This document shows, one piece after another, positions 18,315-26,742 of a stretch of 64,000 nt of DNA; the stretch's first letter is position 1, and each line of letters begins with the position of its first letter. A program made the position numbers and the translations under genes. This DNA comes from Bifidobacteriaceae bacterium (lineage in GTDB: Bacteria; Actinomycetota; Actinomycetes; Actinomycetales; WQXJ01), in assembly GCA_031278655.1 (NCBI GenBank), contig JAITJZ010000064.1:8607-72606 (forward strand), in the 5' to 3' direction. Under the pieces are notes generated by a model. That model was given only the letters and a program-made list of their open reading frames with translations. It searched no databases and had not been told where the DNA came from.

Positions 18315-18358
18315 CGCCTCGCCCCGATGCTCGACGCGCCTTTGGACTTGCGACGCCA

Positions 18359-19957
18359 TTACCTGATGATCAGGTGCCCAGCGCGCTCCGTGTACCCCGA
18401 AAGGTTGTTCATCCGCAACTGGTCCAACCGACCGGCGAACCACATCAGAAGCAAACTGGCCGCGCCCGCCAGACACACGCAGATAGTGCCCACAAGTGAA
18501 GCCGCGACCACGCCCACGTTAGTCACGTGCAGTGCCAACACCAATGTGGACCACCCGCAACAGATCATCGACCAACACACGATCCACCTCGGCCAACGCA
18601 GCAGTTCGGTGCGCGCCGGGTGCTCGCCTTCCCGAGCCGTGAACCCTAGAAAGACCGTTAGCACGGCGGTCATAACTGGAACCACACTGGTGATTCCGTA
18701 GAATTTGTCAACCCTGCTCGTGCCCTTGGCCTGCTCGTCGATCAGGTCCAGGAATTTCTGCGCCTTCCAATCTCCTCCCAGCGCCTTCCCCACAAAATCC
18801 ACGGCGGCAGCGAGATTGTCATTGCCATGGAGGCGAACCCACTCAGCCGCGTCCGCCAACACGCTGTCTGTGCCAGCCTCGCGGAAGAACACCCACGCGA
18901 CGCAGAACCAAGCGATAGCGGCGGCCACCTGGGCCAAAATTCCCGGCACCAAAAAACGCGCCCCATCGGGCCTGATCCTCAAGCTGGCGTAAACCCCGCT
19001 GTTCGCCCCGATTCTCCGCGAAAAGTCCCTGGTGTACACCGTCGCTATAGCCGACGAGGACCTCGTTCGCACAGAGCCGACTGGCGACTCCCGCCGATTT
19101 CCGGCGACAGTCACGACGGGAACCGCTTGCGCGCTGATACGGGTTCCTGCCGGGGCGATGAATGAAACATACTCACGGGCTGCTCTGCCGACATTCGGCA
19201 GCGTCAGGCTTAGCAGCCCGCCCCGATAACCGAGCTTCTCCGTCCAACTGAGCGTCCGGCGCCACCCGCCTGAGCTGTTCCAATCGGTGTAACTGTAGGA
19301 GATTTGACGCACACCGGTCGGCCTCGAACCTATTGGCACGAGCGGCATGTAGTTGAACGTGAACTGCGTCAATAACGCTTCGAAGTCCTTGTGGTCCTTG
19401 AGCAATGTTTCCAATGGCGACCGGCCAAGGCGATCCTCGGTCTCCCACACGAAGAGGGGATCCCCCCGGCCTTGGTTCTCCAGCAATCGCTGGGTTTGCT
19501 CCCTGTCGGGAAGAATCCTGATGCTCTTCCATACCGAATCTCTGGCGGAACCCTGAAGCGGGGGCAAACGCTTGTCCTCAAGCACGCAGTCAAGCATGCC
19601 CAGGGCGATCTTAGAGTGACCTTCACTCTGCGCCATGACCAAAGGTCGGCCTGCGTCGTCGCGCACCTCCAAGTCAGTGAGGTTCTTCGTCAGGAACGCC
19701 AAGGGAAGCCACAGGGTCTGTCGCCGAGACAGCCCTGCTCTCCGCGCGCGCTCGGCGACATCGTCCATGTCGATGTCGAGGGTCACAGTTCTTTTCCAGC
19801 GGCTGACATCCAGCAACTCGATTGACTCCCGATGCCGCCAAATCCACGACGGGTCATCCACCAGGTTCCACATAAAGCGAGCGATCAACTGGCGTTGATA
19901 GGGCGGAGTCGGAGGCGGCTTCCCGAAAAGCTTGCCGCCTGAACGGGTTTCCGTCAT
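18359..19957 (-). CDS. Hypothetical protein: large soluble N-terminal domain plus about 4 C-terminal TM helices; lower GC
   Basis: 532-aa ORF with atypical codon usage; hydrophobic segments near the C-terminus; ATG directly follows the upstream TAA. Confidence 0.75.
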   Translation of the reverse strand: MTETRSGGKLFGKPPPTPPYQRQLIARFMWNLVDDPSWIWRHRESIELLDVSRWKRTVTLDIDMDDVAERARRAGLSRRQTLWLPLAFLTKNLTDLEVRDDAGRPLVMAQSEGHSKIALGMLDCVLEDKRLPPLQGSARDSVWKSIRILPDREQTQRLLENQGRGDPLFVWETEDRLGRSPLETLLKDHKDFEALLTQFTFNYMPLVPIGSRPTGVRQISYSYTDWNSSGGWRRTLSWTEKLGYRGGLLSLTLPNVGRAAREYVSFIAPAGTRISAQAVPVVTVAGNRRESPVGSVRTRSSSAIATVYTRDFSRRIGANSGVYASLRIRPDGARFLVPGILAQVAAAIAWFCVAWVFFREAGTDSVLADAAEWVRLHGNDNLAAAVDFVGKALGGDWKAQKFLDLIDEQAKGTSRVDKFYGITSVVPVMTAVLTVFLGFTAREGEHPARTELLRWPRWIVCWSMICCGWSTLVLALHVTNVGVVAASLVGTICVCLAGAASLLLMWFAGRLDQLRMNNLSGYTERAGHLIIR

Positions 19958-20173
19958 TTACAACTCAACAGGCGCCACAACGCTGCTCGCACCATCGCCG
20001 ACGGCGCCCAATTCCACGCTCCGCGACCCTGTGCCGCCAGCCTTCATCTGAATATCACCGATGAGGTAAGTGCGATCCAAGCCTCTGCGCTCGAGCTGTT
20101 TGCCGATGCTTCGGTCGCCGGCCTCGGGACTGACAAGCCGCGCGCGCAGCCACGGCATCATGTCAAGCGTCAC
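19958..20173 (-). CDS. Small hypothetical protein (71 aa)
   Basis: GGAGGAG RBS 6 nt before GTG; its TAA stop abuts the ATG of the 532-aa gene (TAAATG). Confidence 0.55.
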   Translation of the reverse strand: MTLDMMPWLRARLVSPEAGDRSIGKQLERRGLDRTYLIGDIQMKAGGTGSRSVELGAVGDGASSVVAPVEL

Positions 20174-20309
20174 TTACTTCTCCTCCGTCGCACCAGGACA
20201 CCGTAGCACTAGCGAGACACCCCGAAGACACTTTCCAATAAGCTTCGGAATCGTGCCGGAATCCATTCATCGCCCACGCGACTTCCGGCCTCACGCGGGC
20301 AACGCTACT

Positions 20310-20360
20310 AACTACACGCTTCTGATCTAGCGCGACACGCCGGCGTGGGGCGTGTAGTTT
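20310..20360 (+). promoter_or_regulatory. Leaderless-type promoter of the MFS operon with inverted repeats
   Basis: TAGTTT (20355-20360) 6 nt before GTG; inverted pair aactacacgc (20310-19)/gcgtgtagtt (20350-59); palindrome cacgccggcgtg (20336-47). Confidence 0.45.
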
Positions 20361-20366
20361 GACAAC

Positions 20367-21902
20367 GTGCCCTTCGCCCGGTCGACCCGAGTCCTGATCG
20401 GCGTCATCGGCGTCGAGTTCGTCTCCGGCGTGCTCGGCGCCTACTACACGCCGCTGATCGTGCCGTTGGCGCGCTCCGTCGGCCTGCATGATTCCGACTG
20501 GAACTGGGTCGAGGCGGCGCAAACCCTGTTCGCGGCGGTGGCGATCCCGGTGCTGACCAAACTGGGCGACCGCTTCGGCCACAAGAAGGCGCTGCTCGCC
20601 TCCATCATCATCACCGCCGGCGCCTCCTGGTGGGTGGTGGCCGGCGGCGGGTTTGTGCCTGTCATCTGCGCCTTCTCGCTGATGTCCGTCAGCGCAGTGT
20701 GGGTGGCGCTGGAACTCACCCTGCTGCGCTCCAGCCTCGGGGACACCACCGACTCCCAGGAGCGCGTCTCGGCCGCCTCGGCCGCGCTGATCGTCTCCTT
20801 CATGCTCGGCTCGGTTGGGGCGGCGATCTTCGGCGGGCAGTTCTTCACCGGCGCGGGCGGCTGGGAGGCCCTCCAGGCCGCCGTCGCCAGCGGCCAAGAC
20901 CCGGCCGCCAACGCCGTCTTCGTCCGCGTCCTGCGCCTGACCCTGCTGGTCCCGGCCACCGGGGTGACAATCCTGATCCCGCTGGTCGCGTTCCTGGTCC
21001 CGGAGTCGCGCCGGGCGCCGCCCAGGCAGAGCGACCTCAGCGGCCTGGCCTGGCTGATCGGCATCCTGATCCTGGTGGTCGGCGGGTTGAGCCTGGTCAA
21101 GGTTCTGGGCGTGGCCCGCCCCGAAGGTTGGGTCGTGATCGCGGCCGGGCTGGCGCTGCTCCACCCCTTCGCCCGTCACCAACTCCGGGCCGGCGAGCCC
21201 ACAATCGACCTGCGGCTGCTGCGCCAACCCCAGGTCTGGCCCTACCAGGCCGTCTCCCTGCTGCTCGGGATTGGCTACACGGCCACCCAGATACCGCTGG
21301 TCACCTTCGCCAGCACCGATCCGGCCGTGCATGGTTACGGCCTGGCGGCCGATTCGGGCGATGTCTCGATCGTCATGGCCGTGATGATCATCGCCATCTC
21401 GCTGACCGCCGGCTGCCTGACGGCCTTCGGCTCACGCCTCAACAAACTGCGGCTGATCAGGCTGGCGCCGTTCATCCACGCCGGCGAGTTCGCGGTCTTC
21501 CTGTTCCTGCACACGCAGCTCTGGCACGCCTACCTGGCGGTCGCCATCGGCGGCGTCGGCGCCGGCATCCTGATCGCCTGGCTGCCGGCCACCGCCGCCA
21601 ACGCCGCGCCCCGCGACAAGACCGCCACCCTTGTCGGGTTGATCAGCCTCGGCCGGATGGTCGGGACCGCCATCGGCTCGGCGGTGTTCGCGGTGGTGCT
21701 GGCCACAATCGGGCGCCAGTCGGCGACCGCCGCGGCGCTGAGCGGGTACCTGACCGTCTTCGGCATCGCCATGGCGTCCTCGCTGCTGGGCGGGGCGCTG
21801 CTGGCCGCCGCCTGCGACCCGGCCGCGCGCCCGCCAGCGGCCGGCCCCAAATCCCCCAACACCGCTAACAACGCCAACGACCAGGAGGAAGAACATGCCT
21901 GA
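20367..21902 (+). CDS. MFS transporter (DHA2-like, about 14 TMS)
   Basis: Motif A-like KLGDRFGHKK, many hydrophobic helices, PESRR and EPTIDLRLL linkers. Confidence 0.88.
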   Translation: MPFARSTRVLIGVIGVEFVSGVLGAYYTPLIVPLARSVGLHDSDWNWVEAAQTLFAAVAIPVLTKLGDRFGHKKALLASIIITAGASWWVVAGGGFVPVICAFSLMSVSAVWVALELTLLRSSLGDTTDSQERVSAASAALIVSFMLGSVGAAIFGGQFFTGAGGWEALQAAVASGQDPAANAVFVRVLRLTLLVPATGVTILIPLVAFLVPESRRAPPRQSDLSGLAWLIGILILVVGGLSLVKVLGVARPEGWVVIAAGLALLHPFARHQLRAGEPTIDLRLLRQPQVWPYQAVSLLLGIGYTATQIPLVTFASTDPAVHGYGLAADSGDVSIVMAVMIIAISLTAGCLTAFGSRLNKLRLIRLAPFIHAGEFAVFLFLHTQLWHAYLAVAIGGVGAGILIAWLPATAANAAPRDKTATLVGLISLGRMVGTAIGSAVFAVVLATIGRQSATAAALSGYLTVFGIAMASSLLGGALLAAACDPAARPPAAGPKSPNTANNANDQEEEHA

Positions 21903-23226
21903 TGTGGCAATCATCGGATCGGGCTCGGCCGGGACGCTGGCCGCCTGGAGGCTGCGCCAATTGCTCGGCCCCGAAGCCGGAATCGTGGTCTTCGAACGCG
22001 AGCCGGCCGTGGGCGGCCGCGCGCACCACATCCAATTCGCCGGCGAGCAGATAGAACTGGGCGGCACCCTGATCCACACCGACAACCGGCGCCTGATCGA
22101 CTTGGCCGCCGCCGTGGGCGTGGAACTGACAGAACGCCGGACGGGCCCCCCGGCCGGCGACGGCTCGCTGCTGCTCTGGGACGGACGCGAAGCGGTCTTC
22201 CAGGCGCCGCTGGACGGCCTGCGCCTGCCGCTGGCGCTGATCCGCCAATACGGCCCCTTCAACCTGCTCAAGCTCAGGACCCTGGCGAAACAGGCCAAGG
22301 CGGCCTGGAACAGCGTCTACGGCCTCCAAGACCAGGGTTCGGTGTTCGAGACGCCGCAAGCGCTGATCGCGGCCGCCGGGCTGGCCCCGTACATCCAGGA
22401 ATCGCTGGCCGAACTGGCCAAGGGGCGCGGCATCCGCGGTCACCTGATCGACCACTTCGCCACCGGCGTCCTGCGCGACATGTACAACCAGACCTCTGAC
22501 GTGATCGCGCTGGCCGGGCTGGTCGGCTTGGCCGGGGCGGGCCTGGCCGGAGGCAAACTGGTGGCGGCGCCGTCCGGCAACTCGGCCCTCCTGGCCGCGG
22601 CGCTGGAGCGAAGCGGGGCGGAACTGCTCCTGGGCAGCCGGGTTGACGGCATCGTGCCCGATGCCGTCAAGGTGAGCGTCTCGGGGCCCGGCCTGACGCC
22701 GCGAAGCTTCGACGCGGCCGTGATCGCCGCGCCGCTCGAACTCGCCGGGATCGCCGTCGAAGGCCCTGACGGCCCCGTCACCACCGATGTGGGGCGGCGC
22801 TTCCAGGAGGTCCATGTCACCGTTGTGGCCGGCGAAGTCAACCCGGCCTTCTTCGGCCTGCGGGCCGTGCCGGGCGACATCCTGACCACCGACAGCCCCC
22901 AGGCGCAGTTCAAGGCCTTCGGCCAGACCGGCCATTCACGCTCGCTCGGCGTCCCGATCTGGAAGTTCTTCTCCGCCGAGCCAGTCGGCGAAGAACTGCT
23001 GGAGCGGGTCTTTGTCGAGGTCAAGGCGGTCCACCGTCATCTGTGGCAGGCCTATCCGGTGCTCGAGCCCGCGCCCGAGTTGCTGGCGTTCCGCCTGGCG
23101 CCCGGCGTTTACCAGGTCAACGGTTTCGAGTCGGTGGTCTCGACCCTCGAAACCGAGGGCGCCGTCGGCTGGTCGGTGGCCGATCTGGTGGCGCGCGACC
23201 TGCGCGCCCGCCAGCCCGGGGCTTGA
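21895..23226 (+). CDS. FAD-dependent oxidoreductase resembling prenylcysteine oxidase/lyase
   Basis: IIGSGSAG, FERE..VGGR, ELGGTLIH, MYNQ, SGN, WQAYP and NGFESVVSTLE align by eye with recalled PCYOX1 motifs; AGGAGG RBS. Confidence 0.75.
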   Translation: MPDVAIIGSGSAGTLAAWRLRQLLGPEAGIVVFEREPAVGGRAHHIQFAGEQIELGGTLIHTDNRRLIDLAAAVGVELTERRTGPPAGDGSLLLWDGREAVFQAPLDGLRLPLALIRQYGPFNLLKLRTLAKQAKAAWNSVYGLQDQGSVFETPQALIAAAGLAPYIQESLAELAKGRGIRGHLIDHFATGVLRDMYNQTSDVIALAGLVGLAGAGLAGGKLVAAPSGNSALLAAALERSGAELLLGSRVDGIVPDAVKVSVSGPGLTPRSFDAAVIAAPLELAGIAVEGPDGPVTTDVGRRFQEVHVTVVAGEVNPAFFGLRAVPGDILTTDSPQAQFKAFGQTGHSRSLGVPIWKFFSAEPVGEELLERVFVEVKAVHRHLWQAYPVLEPAPELLAFRLAPGVYQVNGFESVVSTLETEGAVGWSVADLVARDLRARQPGA

Positions 23227-23229
23227 GCG

Positions 23230-24141
23230 GTGGCGGCCGGGCCGCTTTGGGCGGTCCTTCCCGGCATGACGATGCCGCCGGAGGACTTCGCCGCCCTGGC
23301 GGCGGCCTTGGCGCCGGTCCAGCCCGCGGACGCCCCCGGCCCGGCTCACGTCCAAGTCCGCGTCCTTGACGCCTACGATGTCGCCGTGACAGCCCCAGCC
23401 GAGGACCAGCGGCGTTGGTTCGCGGCCAGGGGCGGCTGGTCGAAGGTGCGCTTGGTGGGGCACTCGGCCGGCGGCGCGGCCGCCCTCGAGTGGCTCCTGA
23501 CCCGCCCTGACGAGGTCGAATGCGTGGTCCTGCTCGAGCCGGTGGACCTTGATGAGAAGCCGTCCCGCCTGCGTGCCGGGTCGCTCGCCCACCGGGCGGT
23601 GGGCGGGGTGTTGGCGGCGGCCGGGTCGTGGCCGCCGCTGGCGCGGCTGATCGGGCGCGCCGGGCGGCGCGCCTTTTGGCGGCTGTTCACCGACCAGCCG
23701 GACCATTTGTCGCGCCGAAGCGTCGACAGGATCTGGGGGAACCGGCGGGCCTTGGTGGCCGTCTGGCGCCAGGTCTTCGAACGCTTCGACCAGGAGGCGC
23801 GCGTCCGGGATCGGTTGGCGGCGCTGGAACGGCGGGCCGGCGGCGCGGCGAGCCCGGCTGGGGCCGAGCGCCAAGCTGGGGCTGAGCGCCAAGCGGATAC
23901 TGAGCGCCAAGCTGGGACGGTGGCGACGGCATCGGACCTGGCGGCGATCTTGGTGGTGGCGGGCGACCAGGCCGAGCCCTATCTCCCGGCTCTGGCGCGC
24001 CGCCTGGGCGCCGACTTGGCGCGGATCGGCGGCGACCATCTCTTCCCGACGCGCCGACCGCGCGCCACCGCCGCGCTCATCGCCGCGTGGCACGCCAGCT
24101 TGGGCTCCGACCCGCGCCCAGCCCCGCGCCCCAAAGACTGA
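23230..24141 (+). CDS. Alpha/beta-fold hydrolase
   Basis: VLPG oxyanion-loop position, GHSAGG nucleophile elbow, LLEP, C-terminal GGDH; internal 18-bp repeat (GAERQA, about 3 copies). Confidence 0.75.
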   Translation: MAAGPLWAVLPGMTMPPEDFAALAAALAPVQPADAPGPAHVQVRVLDAYDVAVTAPAEDQRRWFAARGGWSKVRLVGHSAGGAAALEWLLTRPDEVECVVLLEPVDLDEKPSRLRAGSLAHRAVGGVLAAAGSWPPLARLIGRAGRRAFWRLFTDQPDHLSRRSVDRIWGNRRALVAVWRQVFERFDQEARVRDRLAALERRAGGAASPAGAERQAGAERQADTERQAGTVATASDLAAILVVAGDQAEPYLPALARRLGADLARIGGDHLFPTRRPRATAALIAAWHASLGSDPRPAPRPKD

Positions 24142-24148
24142 GGCGGGC

Positions 24149-25030
24149 TCAACCGACGGCGGTGGTGAAGTCGATCAATTCCTCGACCCGCCCCGTCAGG
24201 GCGGGCTCCAGGTGGGACAGATGGTTGACCTCTGCCAGGAGGCGGCGCCAGGCGTCAGCCACATCGGCCTGGTCGCGGGCCGGCCAGCCGAGCTGAGCCA
24301 GCAGCCCAAGCTTCCAGTCGGTTCCGCGCGCCACCTTGGGCCAGGCCGCCAGGCCCAGGCGTTGCGGGCGGACGGCCTGCCAAATGTCGACATAGGGGTG
24401 GCCCAGGATCAGGATCGAGCCAGGCTCGCATTCGGCGCGCACCCGCTCCGCGATCCGCCATTCCTTCGAGCCCTCGACCAGGTGATCGACAAGCACCCCG
24501 AGGCGCGCCTCGCCCGCCGAGGGCCCGAACCGCCGCGCCCGTTCGGCCAGGTGGTCAATCCCGTCCAGCATCTCCACCACCACGCCCTCGACCGCCAGGT
24601 CCTCGCCCCAGACCTTTGCGATCAGTTCGGCGTCGTGGCGCCCCTCGACCCAGATGCGCGACTCGCGGGCGACCCGGGCGCGCGCCCCCGCCACCGCCAC
24701 CGACCCGGAGGCGGTGCGCCGTCCAGGACCGCCGCGGGCCGGCGCCGGCCCGGCCGCGACCAGCACCACCGGCCGGCCGTCGATCAAGAATCCCGGCCCC
24801 AGCCTGAAGCCGCGCGTCCGGCCGCGCCGATCTTCGAGGACCGCCACCAGCATCCCGCCCGCCTTCTCGACCCGCACGATGGCGCCCACCCAGCCCGTCT
24901 CGACGTCCTCGACCACCAGGCCAAGTTCGGCGGCCACCTTGGCGGAGGCGGGGCGCGCCGCCCGGTGCGGGTCCTGCGCCAGCACGTCGCGCCCGTAACG
25001 GTCTGGCCCGTCGAAGCCGCGCCCGCTCAA
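24149..25030 (-). CDS. DUF3097 family protein (TOPRIM-like VEG..D motif)
   Basis: DRYGRDVLA, VVEDVETGWVGA, RIWVEGRHDAEL, GVLVDHL, GHPYVDIWQAV; TTG start overlaps dop stop. Confidence 0.85.
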   Translation of the reverse strand: MSGRGFDGPDRYGRDVLAQDPHRAARPASAKVAAELGLVVEDVETGWVGAIVRVEKAGGMLVAVLEDRRGRTRGFRLGPGFLIDGRPVVLVAAGPAPARGGPGRRTASGSVAVAGARARVARESRIWVEGRHDAELIAKVWGEDLAVEGVVVEMLDGIDHLAERARRFGPSAGEARLGVLVDHLVEGSKEWRIAERVRAECEPGSILILGHPYVDIWQAVRPQRLGLAAWPKVARGTDWKLGLLAQLGWPARDQADVADAWRRLLAEVNHLSHLEPALTGRVEELIDFTTAVG

Positions 25031-26742
25031 ACCTGGTCCACCCCGGTCAGCCGGGAGACCAAATCCCGGGCCGAGGCCGCCTCGGCCAGCAGCGCCTCGA
25101 CCTGGTCGCGCCGCCCCGCCAGCGGGCTGAGCAGGCCGAGGCGGGCGCCGCCGCCGTCCCAGGCCAACGTCAACGAGTCCCAACCGGCCGCCACCACATT
25201 GTCCGGGTAGCGCGACAGGGCCTCGCCTTTCAGGTAGGCGCGGGTCGACGTGGGCGGATGGGCCGCGGCCCAGGCCACCTCCCGTTCCTCGAACAGTGAC
25301 TCGACGCCGCCCCGGGCCGCCAGGCGCGCGAACAGCGAGCGCGACGGGTCGGCGTCGGTCCATCGCAGGTCGGCGGCGCGCAGCTTCGGATGGTCCCAGC
25401 CCCAACCGCGGCGGGCCCGCAGCGACTCCAGCAGTTGATATTTGGCGACCCATTCGACCTGGCGGGCGAGGCTCAGCGGGTCGGTCCTCAAGCCGTCCAG
25501 CAACGCCGACCAGCGCTCGATCAGGTCCGCCGCCTCGGCGTCCGGGAAGCGCAGGTTGGCGGTCACGAAGTCCCGGCAGCGCTGTTGCGCCGCCACCGCG
25601 GTGAGTTCGCCGCCGGACCGCAAAGCCAAGCCGCCCGATGCCGTCAGGTCGCGGCTGACCTGCCAGAACGCCGGCGCCGGGGTGGCCAGGCGGAGGGCTT
25701 CGGCCAATTCGGAGGCCCGCGCCGGGGGCGCGGCGGCCAGGGCGCGCAGAACCAGCCCGGTGACTCCGAGGCGCACATAGGTGGCGACCTCCATCATGGT
25801 GGCGTCGCCGACGATGACGTGGAGGCGCCGCCAGCGGGCCGGGTCGGCGTGCGGCTCGTCGCGGGTGTTGATGATTGGGCGGTTGAGGGTTGTCTCCAGC
25901 CCGACCTCCGCCTCCACGAAATCGGCCCGCTGCGAGATCTGGAAGCCGGGCTCTTGCGAACGGGCGCCCAGCCCCACCCGCCCCGAGCCGGTGAAAACCT
26001 GGCGCGTGACTAGGAACGGCGTCATGACGCCGACCAACAGCTCCCAATCCACGGCCCGGTCCACCAGGTAGTTTTCATGGGTGCCGTAGGAGGCGCCGTG
26101 GCCGTCGGTGTTGTTCTTGTAGAGGGACACCGGCGTCCCGGCCGCCGCCAGGATCCCCCCGGCGCGGGCCATGATCCGTTGCCCGGCCAGATCCCACAGC
26201 GCCGCCTCGCGGGCGCTGGCCGTCTCCGGGCTGGCATACTCCGGGTGGGCGTGGTCAACGTAGAGCCTGGCCCCGTTGCGGAGCAGGGCCGCGCCCGGCC
26301 CCCGGCGGACGGGATCGTCCCGCCCGCGCCGGCCGGGCCAATCGGCCTGGCCGGCCACATCGGCTCCAATGGCGCCGCCGATCCCATCAGCCAGGCGCGA
26401 ACCGGCGCGGCTGGAACCGGGCCGGGCCGGCGGCGCCGACCAGACGGCATCGGGCAAAAGCGTGGCCGCCGGGGCGGGCGAAGCGGGCTGGTCCGCCCGG
26501 GCCGAGGGCTGGGCGGCGGCGCGGTCCAGGCGGAAGCCGCGGGCGTCGTTGAGGGGGTCCTCGGAGGCGTGGTCCCAGGGCGCCACCCGGCCGTCCTGGC
26601 TGGCCTTGTAGGCGGCCACCACCCAATTCGACAACTCGACCGGGTTCTGGCGCGGGGCCCCGCGCCCGGGCGCCCCGTCCCCCGCCGCCCGGTCGGCCAT
26701 GATCCCGTATTCGGTCTCGATTCCGAAGGCCAGTTCGACCAC
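25027..26742 (-). CDS. dop: Pup deamidase/depupylase
   Basis: [56 protein letters not shown]; GGGGAG RBS. Confidence 0.93.
   Translation of the reverse strand: MVELAFGIETEYGIMADRAAGDGAPGRGAPRQNPVELSNWVVAAYKASQDGRVAPWDHASEDPLNDARGFRLDRAAAQPSARADQPASPAPAATLLPDAVWSAPPARPGSSRAGSRLADGIGGAIGADVAGQADWPGRRGRDDPVRRGPGAALLRNGARLYVDHAHPEYASPETASAREAALWDLAGQRIMARAGGILAAAGTPVSLYKNNTDGHGASYGTHENYLVDRAVDWELLVGVMTPFLVTRQVFTGSGRVGLGARSQEPGFQISQRADFVEAEVGLETTLNRPIINTRDEPHADPARWRRLHVIVGDATMMEVATYVRLGVTGLVLRALAAAPPARASELAEALRLATPAPAFWQVSRDLTASGGLALRSGGELTAVAAQQRCRDFVTANLRFPDAEAADLIERWSALLDGLRTDPLSLARQVEWVAKYQLLESLRARRGWGWDHPKLRAADLRWTDADPSRSLFARLAARGGVESLFEEREVAWAAAHPPTSTRAYLKGEALSRYPDNVVAAGWDSLTLAWDGGGARLGLLSPLAGRRDQVEALLAEAASARDLVSRLTGVDQV

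Follow-up and report, generated by a model that had tools for sequence, protein, structure and literature searches.

What does a bacterium do with an oxidase of the prenylcysteine oxidase (PCYOX) family, and which thioether would it cleave? The question is raised by a three-gene locus at positions 20367-24141 of a 64,000-nucleotide stretch of DNA from a Bifidobacteriaceae bacterium (assembly GCA_031278655.1, contig JAITJZ010000064.1). The whole of this stretch, with a G+C content of about 70%, is referred to here as the window. The locus comprises three co-directional open reading frames (ORFs), which encode a permease of the major facilitator superfamily (MFS), a flavoprotein oxidase and an alpha/beta hydrolase:

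20367-21902, plus strand: MFS permease, 511 amino acids (PF07690)
21895-23226, plus strand: PCYOX-family FAD-dependent oxidase, 443 amino acids (PF07156, PDB entry 9fxq, AlphaFold2 model)
23230-24141, plus strand: serine alpha/beta hydrolase, 303 amino acids (Abhydrolase_1)

The original prediction, made from the sequence, had described three tightly linked genes, and the ORF coordinates bear this out: the MFS and oxidase genes overlap by 8 nt (21895-21902) and the oxidase and hydrolase genes are separated by 3 nt (23227-23229). We find that the flavoprotein belongs to the PCYOX (Prenylcys_lyase) family. With a probability of roughly 0.55, the three genes constitute a self-contained accessory cassette that takes up a cysteine-type amino acid bearing an S-substituent and cleaves its C-S bond oxidatively.

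The oxidase is a member of the PCYOX family

The best Pfam match of the oxidase is PF07156 (Prenylcys_lyase), with a score of 157.2 bits (cut-off 27; E = 7.9e-46) and with residues 115-438 placed on positions 14-356 of the 363 in the profile; the match was confirmed on the genome. The flavoprotein families that could have claimed the protein instead, namely HemY, the amine oxidases and the carotenoid desaturases, all fall below it. The Amino_oxidase profile scores only 60 bits, NAD_binding_8 matches with an E-value of 5e-10, and no equivalog of NCBIfam fits, the HemY, CrtI and HpnE models matching the Rossmann N-terminus only. The sole full-length relative in the PDB is ancestral PCYOX1 (9fxq; E = 1.8e-31, residues 4-426), the structure of which was reported by Barone et al. 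(JBC 2024, PMC11530802); the remaining PDB matches cover no more than the first 50-120 residues. Identity to the enzymes of the PCYOX1, PCYOX1L and FCLY type is about 25%.

The fold was modeled with AlphaFold2 on 25 homologues, at a predicted local distance difference test (pLDDT) score of 92.7. The top Foldseek match of this model was again 9fxq (E = 6e-36, template-modeling (TM) scores of 0.89/0.85, root-mean-square deviation of 2.7 Å), and the superposition of the predicted structure gave 457 aligned columns for a chain of 464 residues. The next structures matched by the model were amine, nicotine and protoporphyrinogen oxidases, at TM-scores of approximately 0.6-0.69, the amine oxidases reaching about 0.65. 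The blocks that had been described as following one another in the order of the eukaryotic enzymes are all present, and each aligns to its counterpart in 9fxq: IELGGTLIH to YEAGGSVIH, LRDMYNQ to MRVNYGQ, SGN to GGN, WQAYP to WLAYP, and NGFESVVSTLE to NGIEWAASAME. The Rossmann FAD motif consists of GSGSAG (residues 8-13), E34 and GGR (residues 40-42), and is conserved in the alignment of bacterial homologues.

Enzymes of the PCYOX family cleave S-farnesyl- or S-geranylgeranyl-L-cysteine in an O2-dependent reaction that yields cysteine, an aldehyde and H2O2. The active site of PCYOX1 provides a reference for the window oxidase. The Y221A mutation abolishes activity and substrate binding, the V234W mutation, at a small residue of the substrate tunnel, abolishes activity, and the published model has Tyr221 and Tyr433 in contact with the cysteine head group (PMC11530802). 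PCYOX1 further requires a free alpha-amino group, and uses the methyl ester nearly as well as it does the free acid (PMC11530802, Table 1). The chain numbering of 9fxq is, we infer, that of the paper minus 20; on this mapping the alignment equates Tyr221, Val234 and Tyr433 with Y197 (within LRDMYNQ), V210 and Y387 (within WQAYP) of the window oxidase. Among the 25 bacterial homologues, Y197 and Y387 never vary and V210 hardly does. All three are invariant or nearly so across 168 prokaryotic and eukaryotic members of the family, in which R42, Y142, Q199, N229, K357, W384, P388, E412 and E419 are conserved as well. Family membership, together with the conservation of these active-site residues, suggests that the chemistry of the oxidase is thioether cleavage.

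The Rossmann strand and motif begin at residue 3, in agreement with the earlier statement that the protein has no signal peptide. Its close relatives are likewise devoid of an N-terminal extension, and the named eukaryotic members of the family carry a hydrophobic leader. Because it has no signal peptide, the oxidase is predicted to be cytoplasmic, unlike the eukaryotic members, which enter the secretory pathway (with a lysosomal, endoplasmic reticulum, lipoprotein or secreted location).

The gene is rare and lies on a prokaryotic branch

The oxidase gene is single-copy in the metagenome-assembled genome (MAG) to which the window belongs (2.73 Mb, 92.6% complete). It is rare and patchy in its distribution, since PF07156 is found in 6 of the 11 genomes of the genus, in no other genus of the GTDB family (19 species genomes, uncultured), and above cut-off in 1 of 401 evenly sampled genomes of the class, which is the window's own. 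A word-indexed search retrieved 37 relatives, all of them MAG proteins with the addition of one from Nocardioides bruguierae, the only cultured carrier that was found. The MAGs are labeled as Propionibacteriaceae, Bifidobacteriaceae and Coriobacteriales, and the proteins bear the name "FAD-dependent oxidoreductase" or the JGI label "prenylcysteine oxidase/farnesylcysteine lyase".

An exhaustive profile search yielded 995 clusters (50% identity) at E <= 1e-30, and a tree was built from the best 168. The tree has a group of 73 representatives, mostly without an N-terminal extension, in which the named sequences are from MAGs of Chloroflexota, Bacillota and Actinomycetota, and a group of 95 representatives, mostly with hydrophobic leaders, the named members of which include legume farnesylcysteine lyases, a cnidarian PCYOX1-like protein, and proteins of Ectocarpus and a choanoflagellate. 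The window oxidase is located inside an actinobacterial clade of 44 representatives with an SH-like support of 1.0; support for the monophyly of all prokaryotic sequences together is weak (0.51). The branch that holds the oxidase is prokaryotic and distinct from the eukaryotic enzymes. A recent transfer of the gene from a eukaryote was considered and rejected in view of the fully supported actinobacterial clade within a prokaryotic group devoid of signal peptides; nothing points to such a transfer from a host, given the age of the bacterial clade and its separation from the eukaryotic sequences.

The oxidase is often encoded beside a permease and a hydrolase or a racemase

We examined 17 independent genomic contexts of the oxidase (G, L and C numbers are our own handles):

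MFS-oxidase-hydrolase, six contexts: the window, G011, G007, L002, L003/L004 and L024; oxidase identity 48-83%
Oxidase-hydrolase with a LysR regulator, one context: N. bruguierae
Racemase-MFS-oxidase ("type B"), three contexts: congeners G012, G005 and G006; oxidase 32-34% identical
MFS adjoining the oxidase, two contexts: L008, and L009, where the MFS gene is divergently oriented (Coriobacteriales)
Oxidase alone, five contexts: L006, L016, L017, L026 and L028

The linkage of the three genes, on which the original prediction depended, is conserved, as the MFS-oxidase-hydrolase arrangement (type A) recurs in six genomes or contigs. With the oxidase alone in 5 of the 17 contexts, the partners are therefore not obligatory. 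The closest orthologous oxidase (76% identity; L014/L023, G011:C177) contains one in-frame TAG in the MAG assembly, which could be a sequencing error or the mark of a recent pseudogene.

The hydrolase matches Abhydrolase_1 (E = 9.6e-7) and has a GHSAG nucleophile elbow with Ser79; His270 and Asp106 are invariant in two alignments of homologues. Its AlphaFold2 model (pLDDT 88) predicts a canonical core with a helical lid of about 110 residues. The predicted fold gives generic matches at a TM-score of about 0.55, to esterases, monoacylglycerol lipases, haloalkane dehalogenases and epoxide hydrolases. No specific esterase family was matched: Abhydrolase_3 gave an E-value of 0.039 and the other matches were to the generic Abhydrolase_1, Abhydrolase_6 and Hydrolase_4. 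A low-complexity insert of the AGAERQ type is missing in the orthologues and corresponds to a segment of low pLDDT. The family is small, with 9 detectable homologues (named "lipase" by JGI) in 5.8 billion proteins, and 6 of the 9 are on contigs that agree in length with oxidase-bearing contigs; no other contexts were seen for them. Wherever the context could be checked, the hydrolase appears to be a private partner of the oxidase.

The permease matches PF07690 (MFS_1; E = 1.8e-19) and has approximately 11-14 predicted transmembrane segments. No relative in the PDB and no NCBIfam assignment was found for it; with the EmrB model TIGR00711 of the DHA2 drug:H+ antiporters it scores 32.5 bits against a cut-off of 230, below the level for this subfamily. 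The permeases beside type A oxidases are orthologues 64-83% identical to that of the window, and those beside type B oxidases are homologues only 24-27% identical to it. By these identities, the permease co-diverges with the oxidase.

The racemase of the type B operons (L019:2922-3644, L021:9982-10728 on the minus strand, and L022:3073-3795 in congeners G012, G005 and G006) has 240-248 amino acids and is of the two-thiol (two-Cys) type (PF01177, E = 1e-20 to 1e-24), with both catalytic motifs, IACNTAH and LGCTELP, present. Its PDB relatives are aspartate racemases and its best NCBIfam model is the cysteate racemase CuyB. It shares with these enzymes the two-Cys fold, independent of pyridoxal phosphate, but it is not CuyB itself, because the score is about 100 bits against an equivalog cut-off of 190; it is also absent from the window's own cassette. 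The substrate of CuyB is a sulfur-bearing beta-substituted alanine. The gene is translationally adjacent to those of the MFS permease and the oxidase, and a racemase for a beta-substituted alanine in this position argues that the substrate of the pathway would be a free amino acid with a modified beta-sulfur. The conservation of the cysteine-head-group residues in the oxidase is consistent with an amino-acid substrate.

Gene layout and insertion site

Around the three genes, the following features were recorded:

20355-20360, plus strand: candidate -10 element TAGTTT (TANNNT type), read from the sequence, ending 6 nt before the GTG of the MFS gene
21884-21889, plus strand: Shine-Dalgarno sequence GGAGGA of the oxidase, read from the sequence, inside the end of the MFS gene and 5 nt before the oxidase ATG
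23857-23916, plus strand: 18-nt tandem repeat in the hydrolase gene, 3.3 copies, encoding the AGAERQ-type repeats
18315-24148, no strand assigned: 5.8-kb segment consisting of a two-gene module of lower G+C and the three-gene cassette, absent from the same site in congener G008

Any start further upstream is blocked by an in-frame TAG (20355-20357) that lies 12 nt upstream of the MFS GTG. The TAGTTT element at this distance would fit a leaderless actinobacterial transcript. A scan of 19800-24400 for sigma-70 consensus promoters and intrinsic terminators found nothing, the consensus being a poor fit for actinobacteria of high G+C. The next gene after the cassette, from 24149 onward, is convergent and encodes a DUF3097 protein. 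Its longest ORF (24149-26047, minus strand, 632 amino acids) has about 1 kb in common with the dop ORF (25027-26742). The true start of DUF3097 is probably well downstream of the first start codon of this ORF, because the domains begin at residue 121 of the 383-residue translation that was used.

The Nfn and DUF3097 genes of congener G008 converge with only about 65 bp between them, and this is the empty site of the window's segment. In congener G009 the same junction (L041:1272-3599, G009:C9) is occupied by a class-V aminotransferase and a D-2-hydroxyacid dehydrogenase, and the junction is thus variable within the genus. We found no direct or inverted repeats flanking the 5.8-kb insert, all matches being short and chance-like. 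The two-gene module (18359-20173, G+C of 0.62, without a Pfam match) lies directly upstream of the cassette. It was considered as a part of the system and rejected, as it is divergent and absent from every other cassette locus.

The flanks of the cassette differ in every genome. They include DUF3097 and dop; MetE and a siderophore ABC transporter; aldehyde and alcohol dehydrogenases; Opp and an S9 peptidase; acetyltransferases; and a peptide ABC transporter, a beta-lactamase-family protein and a dipeptide epimerase. Because of these differing flanks and the comparison with G008 and G009, the cassette is a self-contained, mobile accessory unit.

Some individual neighbors are of interest in themselves. 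At L002:2533-4533 an S9 peptidase of the prolyl-oligopeptidase/acylaminoacyl-peptidase type comes after an Opp-type ABC transporter and overlaps the beginning of the cassette MFS gene, a hint that the substrate may be supplied in peptide or N-acylated form. An aldehyde dehydrogenase and a zinc-dependent alcohol dehydrogenase are located near the oxidase at L023:5257-8431 (G011), and an aldo-keto reductase near that of L006 (L006:4700-5719). These enzymes could handle an aldehyde product.

Proposed pathway and competing explanations

In the pathway that we propose, the MFS permease would import an amphipathic S-substituted cysteine derivative. The lidded serine hydrolase of type A cassettes would strip a blocking ester or acyl group, and the hydrolase (type A) or the racemase (type B) would convert the substrate to a form acceptable to the oxidase. 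The PCYOX-family flavoprotein would then abstract a hydride from the carbon adjoining sulfur, the thiocarbenium ion thus formed would hydrolyze to free cysteine and an aldehyde, and the reduced FAD would be re-oxidized by O2 or possibly by another acceptor. It is plausible that the S-substituent is lipophilic, such as prenyl, alkyl or acylglyceryl; this is weakly favored by the small V210, by the lid of the hydrolase and by the retention of the whole substrate domain. The genome encodes cytochrome bd, which makes contact with O2 plausible. As it also encodes PFOR and Nfn, an acceptor other than O2 is possible.

Several observations weigh against this scheme. PFOR and Nfn suggest a largely anaerobic lifestyle, with which an oxidase that forms H2O2 does not sit easily. 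No specific family could be assigned to the hydrolase, the weak similarity of the permease is to the DHA2 efflux pumps, and the oxidase stands alone in almost a third of the contexts (5 of 17). Our literature searches found no characterized prokaryotic PF07156 enzyme or activity, as had been anticipated at the outset.

The original prediction was more specific in naming the substrate. It had the bacterium scavenge or detoxify S-farnesyl- or S-geranylgeranyl-cysteine derived from eukaryotes, the hydrolase demethylating it, the oxidase cleaving it, and the permease importing the substrate or exporting farnesal. The family has no known substrates other than prenylcysteines (PMC11530802), and the modeled fold is kept over its full length (TM-score of 0.89). 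The tunnel residue Val234, at which substitution by tryptophan inactivates PCYOX1, is retained as V210, the hydrolase is predicted to have a large helical lid with monoacylglycerol lipases among its fold matches, and the only cultured carrier found is N. bruguierae. Nevertheless, we regard this version as doubtful. A demethylating step is not obviously needed, because PCYOX1 takes the methyl ester nearly as readily as the acid, and the proposal that the hydrolase is the counterpart of the plant methylesterase finds no support, as the protein is a generic lidded serine hydrolase with Abhydrolase_3 a weak match at best. The methyltransferase ICMT (PF04140) was found in 0 of the 19 genomes of the GTDB family, the control genomes giving matches, and an endogenous pool of methyl-esterified prenylcysteine was rejected for this reason. 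A search by sample and run identifiers gave no information on the habitat. L-prenylcysteine does not explain the racemase of the sister operons, and the old bacterial clade, separate from the eukaryotic one, gives no sign of a recent acquisition from a host. The family assignment and the gene linkage of the prenylcysteine-oxidase-like cassette stand, then, whereas a eukaryotic prenylcysteine as its substrate and an association with eukaryotes are possible but unsupported, with ICMT missing and a racemase that they did not predict.

S-Diacylglyceryl-cysteine, the product of the Lgt pathway, is the main lipid-cysteine thioether that bacteria make themselves, and the cassette might recycle such lipoprotein anchors of the cell or of its neighbors. 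The permease would flip or import the lipid-cysteine, the hydrolase would strip the O-acyl groups, and the oxidase would release cysteine and glyceraldehyde. The hydrolase, lidded in its model and lipase-like, with homologues that JGI names as lipases, would suit this role, as would the cytoplasmic or membrane location expected for all partners. The scheme is very unlikely nonetheless: it is speculative and without precedent, the carbon adjoining sulfur is non-allylic and would be harder to oxidize, the racemase is left unexplained, and lipoproteins are universal, whereas PF07156 is present in a single one of the 401 sampled class genomes. It is also improbable, if less so, that the flavoprotein has drifted to the oxidation of amines or other non-thioether substrates, with the permease as an efflux pump and the cassette as a module for detoxification or export. 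The fold is common to amine oxidases, the weak matches of the permease are to DHA2 pumps, and the distant bacterial members stand alone in unrelated contexts. Yet the signature residues of the family, including those for the cysteine head group, are kept in prokaryotes and eukaryotes, the next-best family scores far lower (Amino_oxidase, 60 against 157 bits), and the racemase partner points to an amino-acid substrate. Beyond our preferred reading, in which the cassette takes up an S-substituted cysteine and cleaves its C-S bond, we entertain tentatively the broader possibility that prokaryotes have their own branch of cytoplasmic thioether oxidases within dedicated uptake-and-processing cassettes. 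The substrates of these may include eukaryotic prenylcysteines, the remnants of lipoprotein anchors, and D/L thioether amino acids of the lanthionine type.

Relation to known systems and significance

The window oxidase resembles PCYOX1, PCYOX1L and FCLY in its PF07156 domain, its two-domain fold, its FAD-binding motifs and the equivalents of Tyr221, Val234 and Tyr433. It differs from PCYOX1 in being operonic with an MFS permease and a private hydrolase or a racemase, and in its position on a separate prokaryotic branch. In plants, an alpha/beta-fold serine hydrolase (ICME/PCME) acts upstream of farnesylcysteine lyase. The window hydrolase shares the alpha/beta fold and the serine nucleophile but, unlike the plant enzyme, is small and lidded, with a core of about 240 residues and generic matches only. 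Salvage of S-alkylcysteine in Bacillus subtilis proceeds by N-acetylation, sulfoxidation by CmoO, C-S cleavage by CmoJ and deacetylation (PMC10863075). This route and that of YxeK for S-(2-succino)cysteine are similar to the cassette in that cysteine is recovered by flavoenzymes with processing of the head group. The enzymes themselves belong to unrelated families, CmoO, CmoJ and YxeK being two-component flavin monooxygenases. Their chemistry runs through sulfoxide or peroxyflavin species in several steps, whereas the cassette is proposed to use direct oxidation to a thiocarbenium ion in one.

Bacterial PF07156 proteins are not new, as automatic annotation already labels the homologues; the study of PCYOX evolution sampled Metazoa only. 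What is new is the distinct cytoplasmic prokaryotic branch, the operons of the MFS-hydrolase and racemase-MFS kinds, and the behavior of an accessory, insertion-type element. Direct flavin-dependent oxidation of a thioether by PCYOX is unusual, and the studies that we found cover the metazoan and plant enzymes, which are of relevance to lipoprotein oxidation, drug metabolism and abscisic acid signaling. A soluble bacterial branch, with about 70 clusters at 50% identity among the best matches, would offer easily expressed enzymes for work on mechanism and for biocatalysis, namely of C-S cleavage without a sulfoxide intermediate. Nocardioides bruguierae would be a cultured entry point for genetics, and the alternation of hydrolase and racemase partners in one genus is a clear and testable clue to the natural substrate. 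If the broader reading of a prokaryotic branch with dedicated cassettes is true, bacteria would have a one-enzyme route for the recovery of cysteine, distinct from the CmoO/CmoJ and YxeK pathways, and the branch would be a handle on how they use lipid-cysteine or other thioether amino acids, a side of sulfur salvage that is poorly charted.

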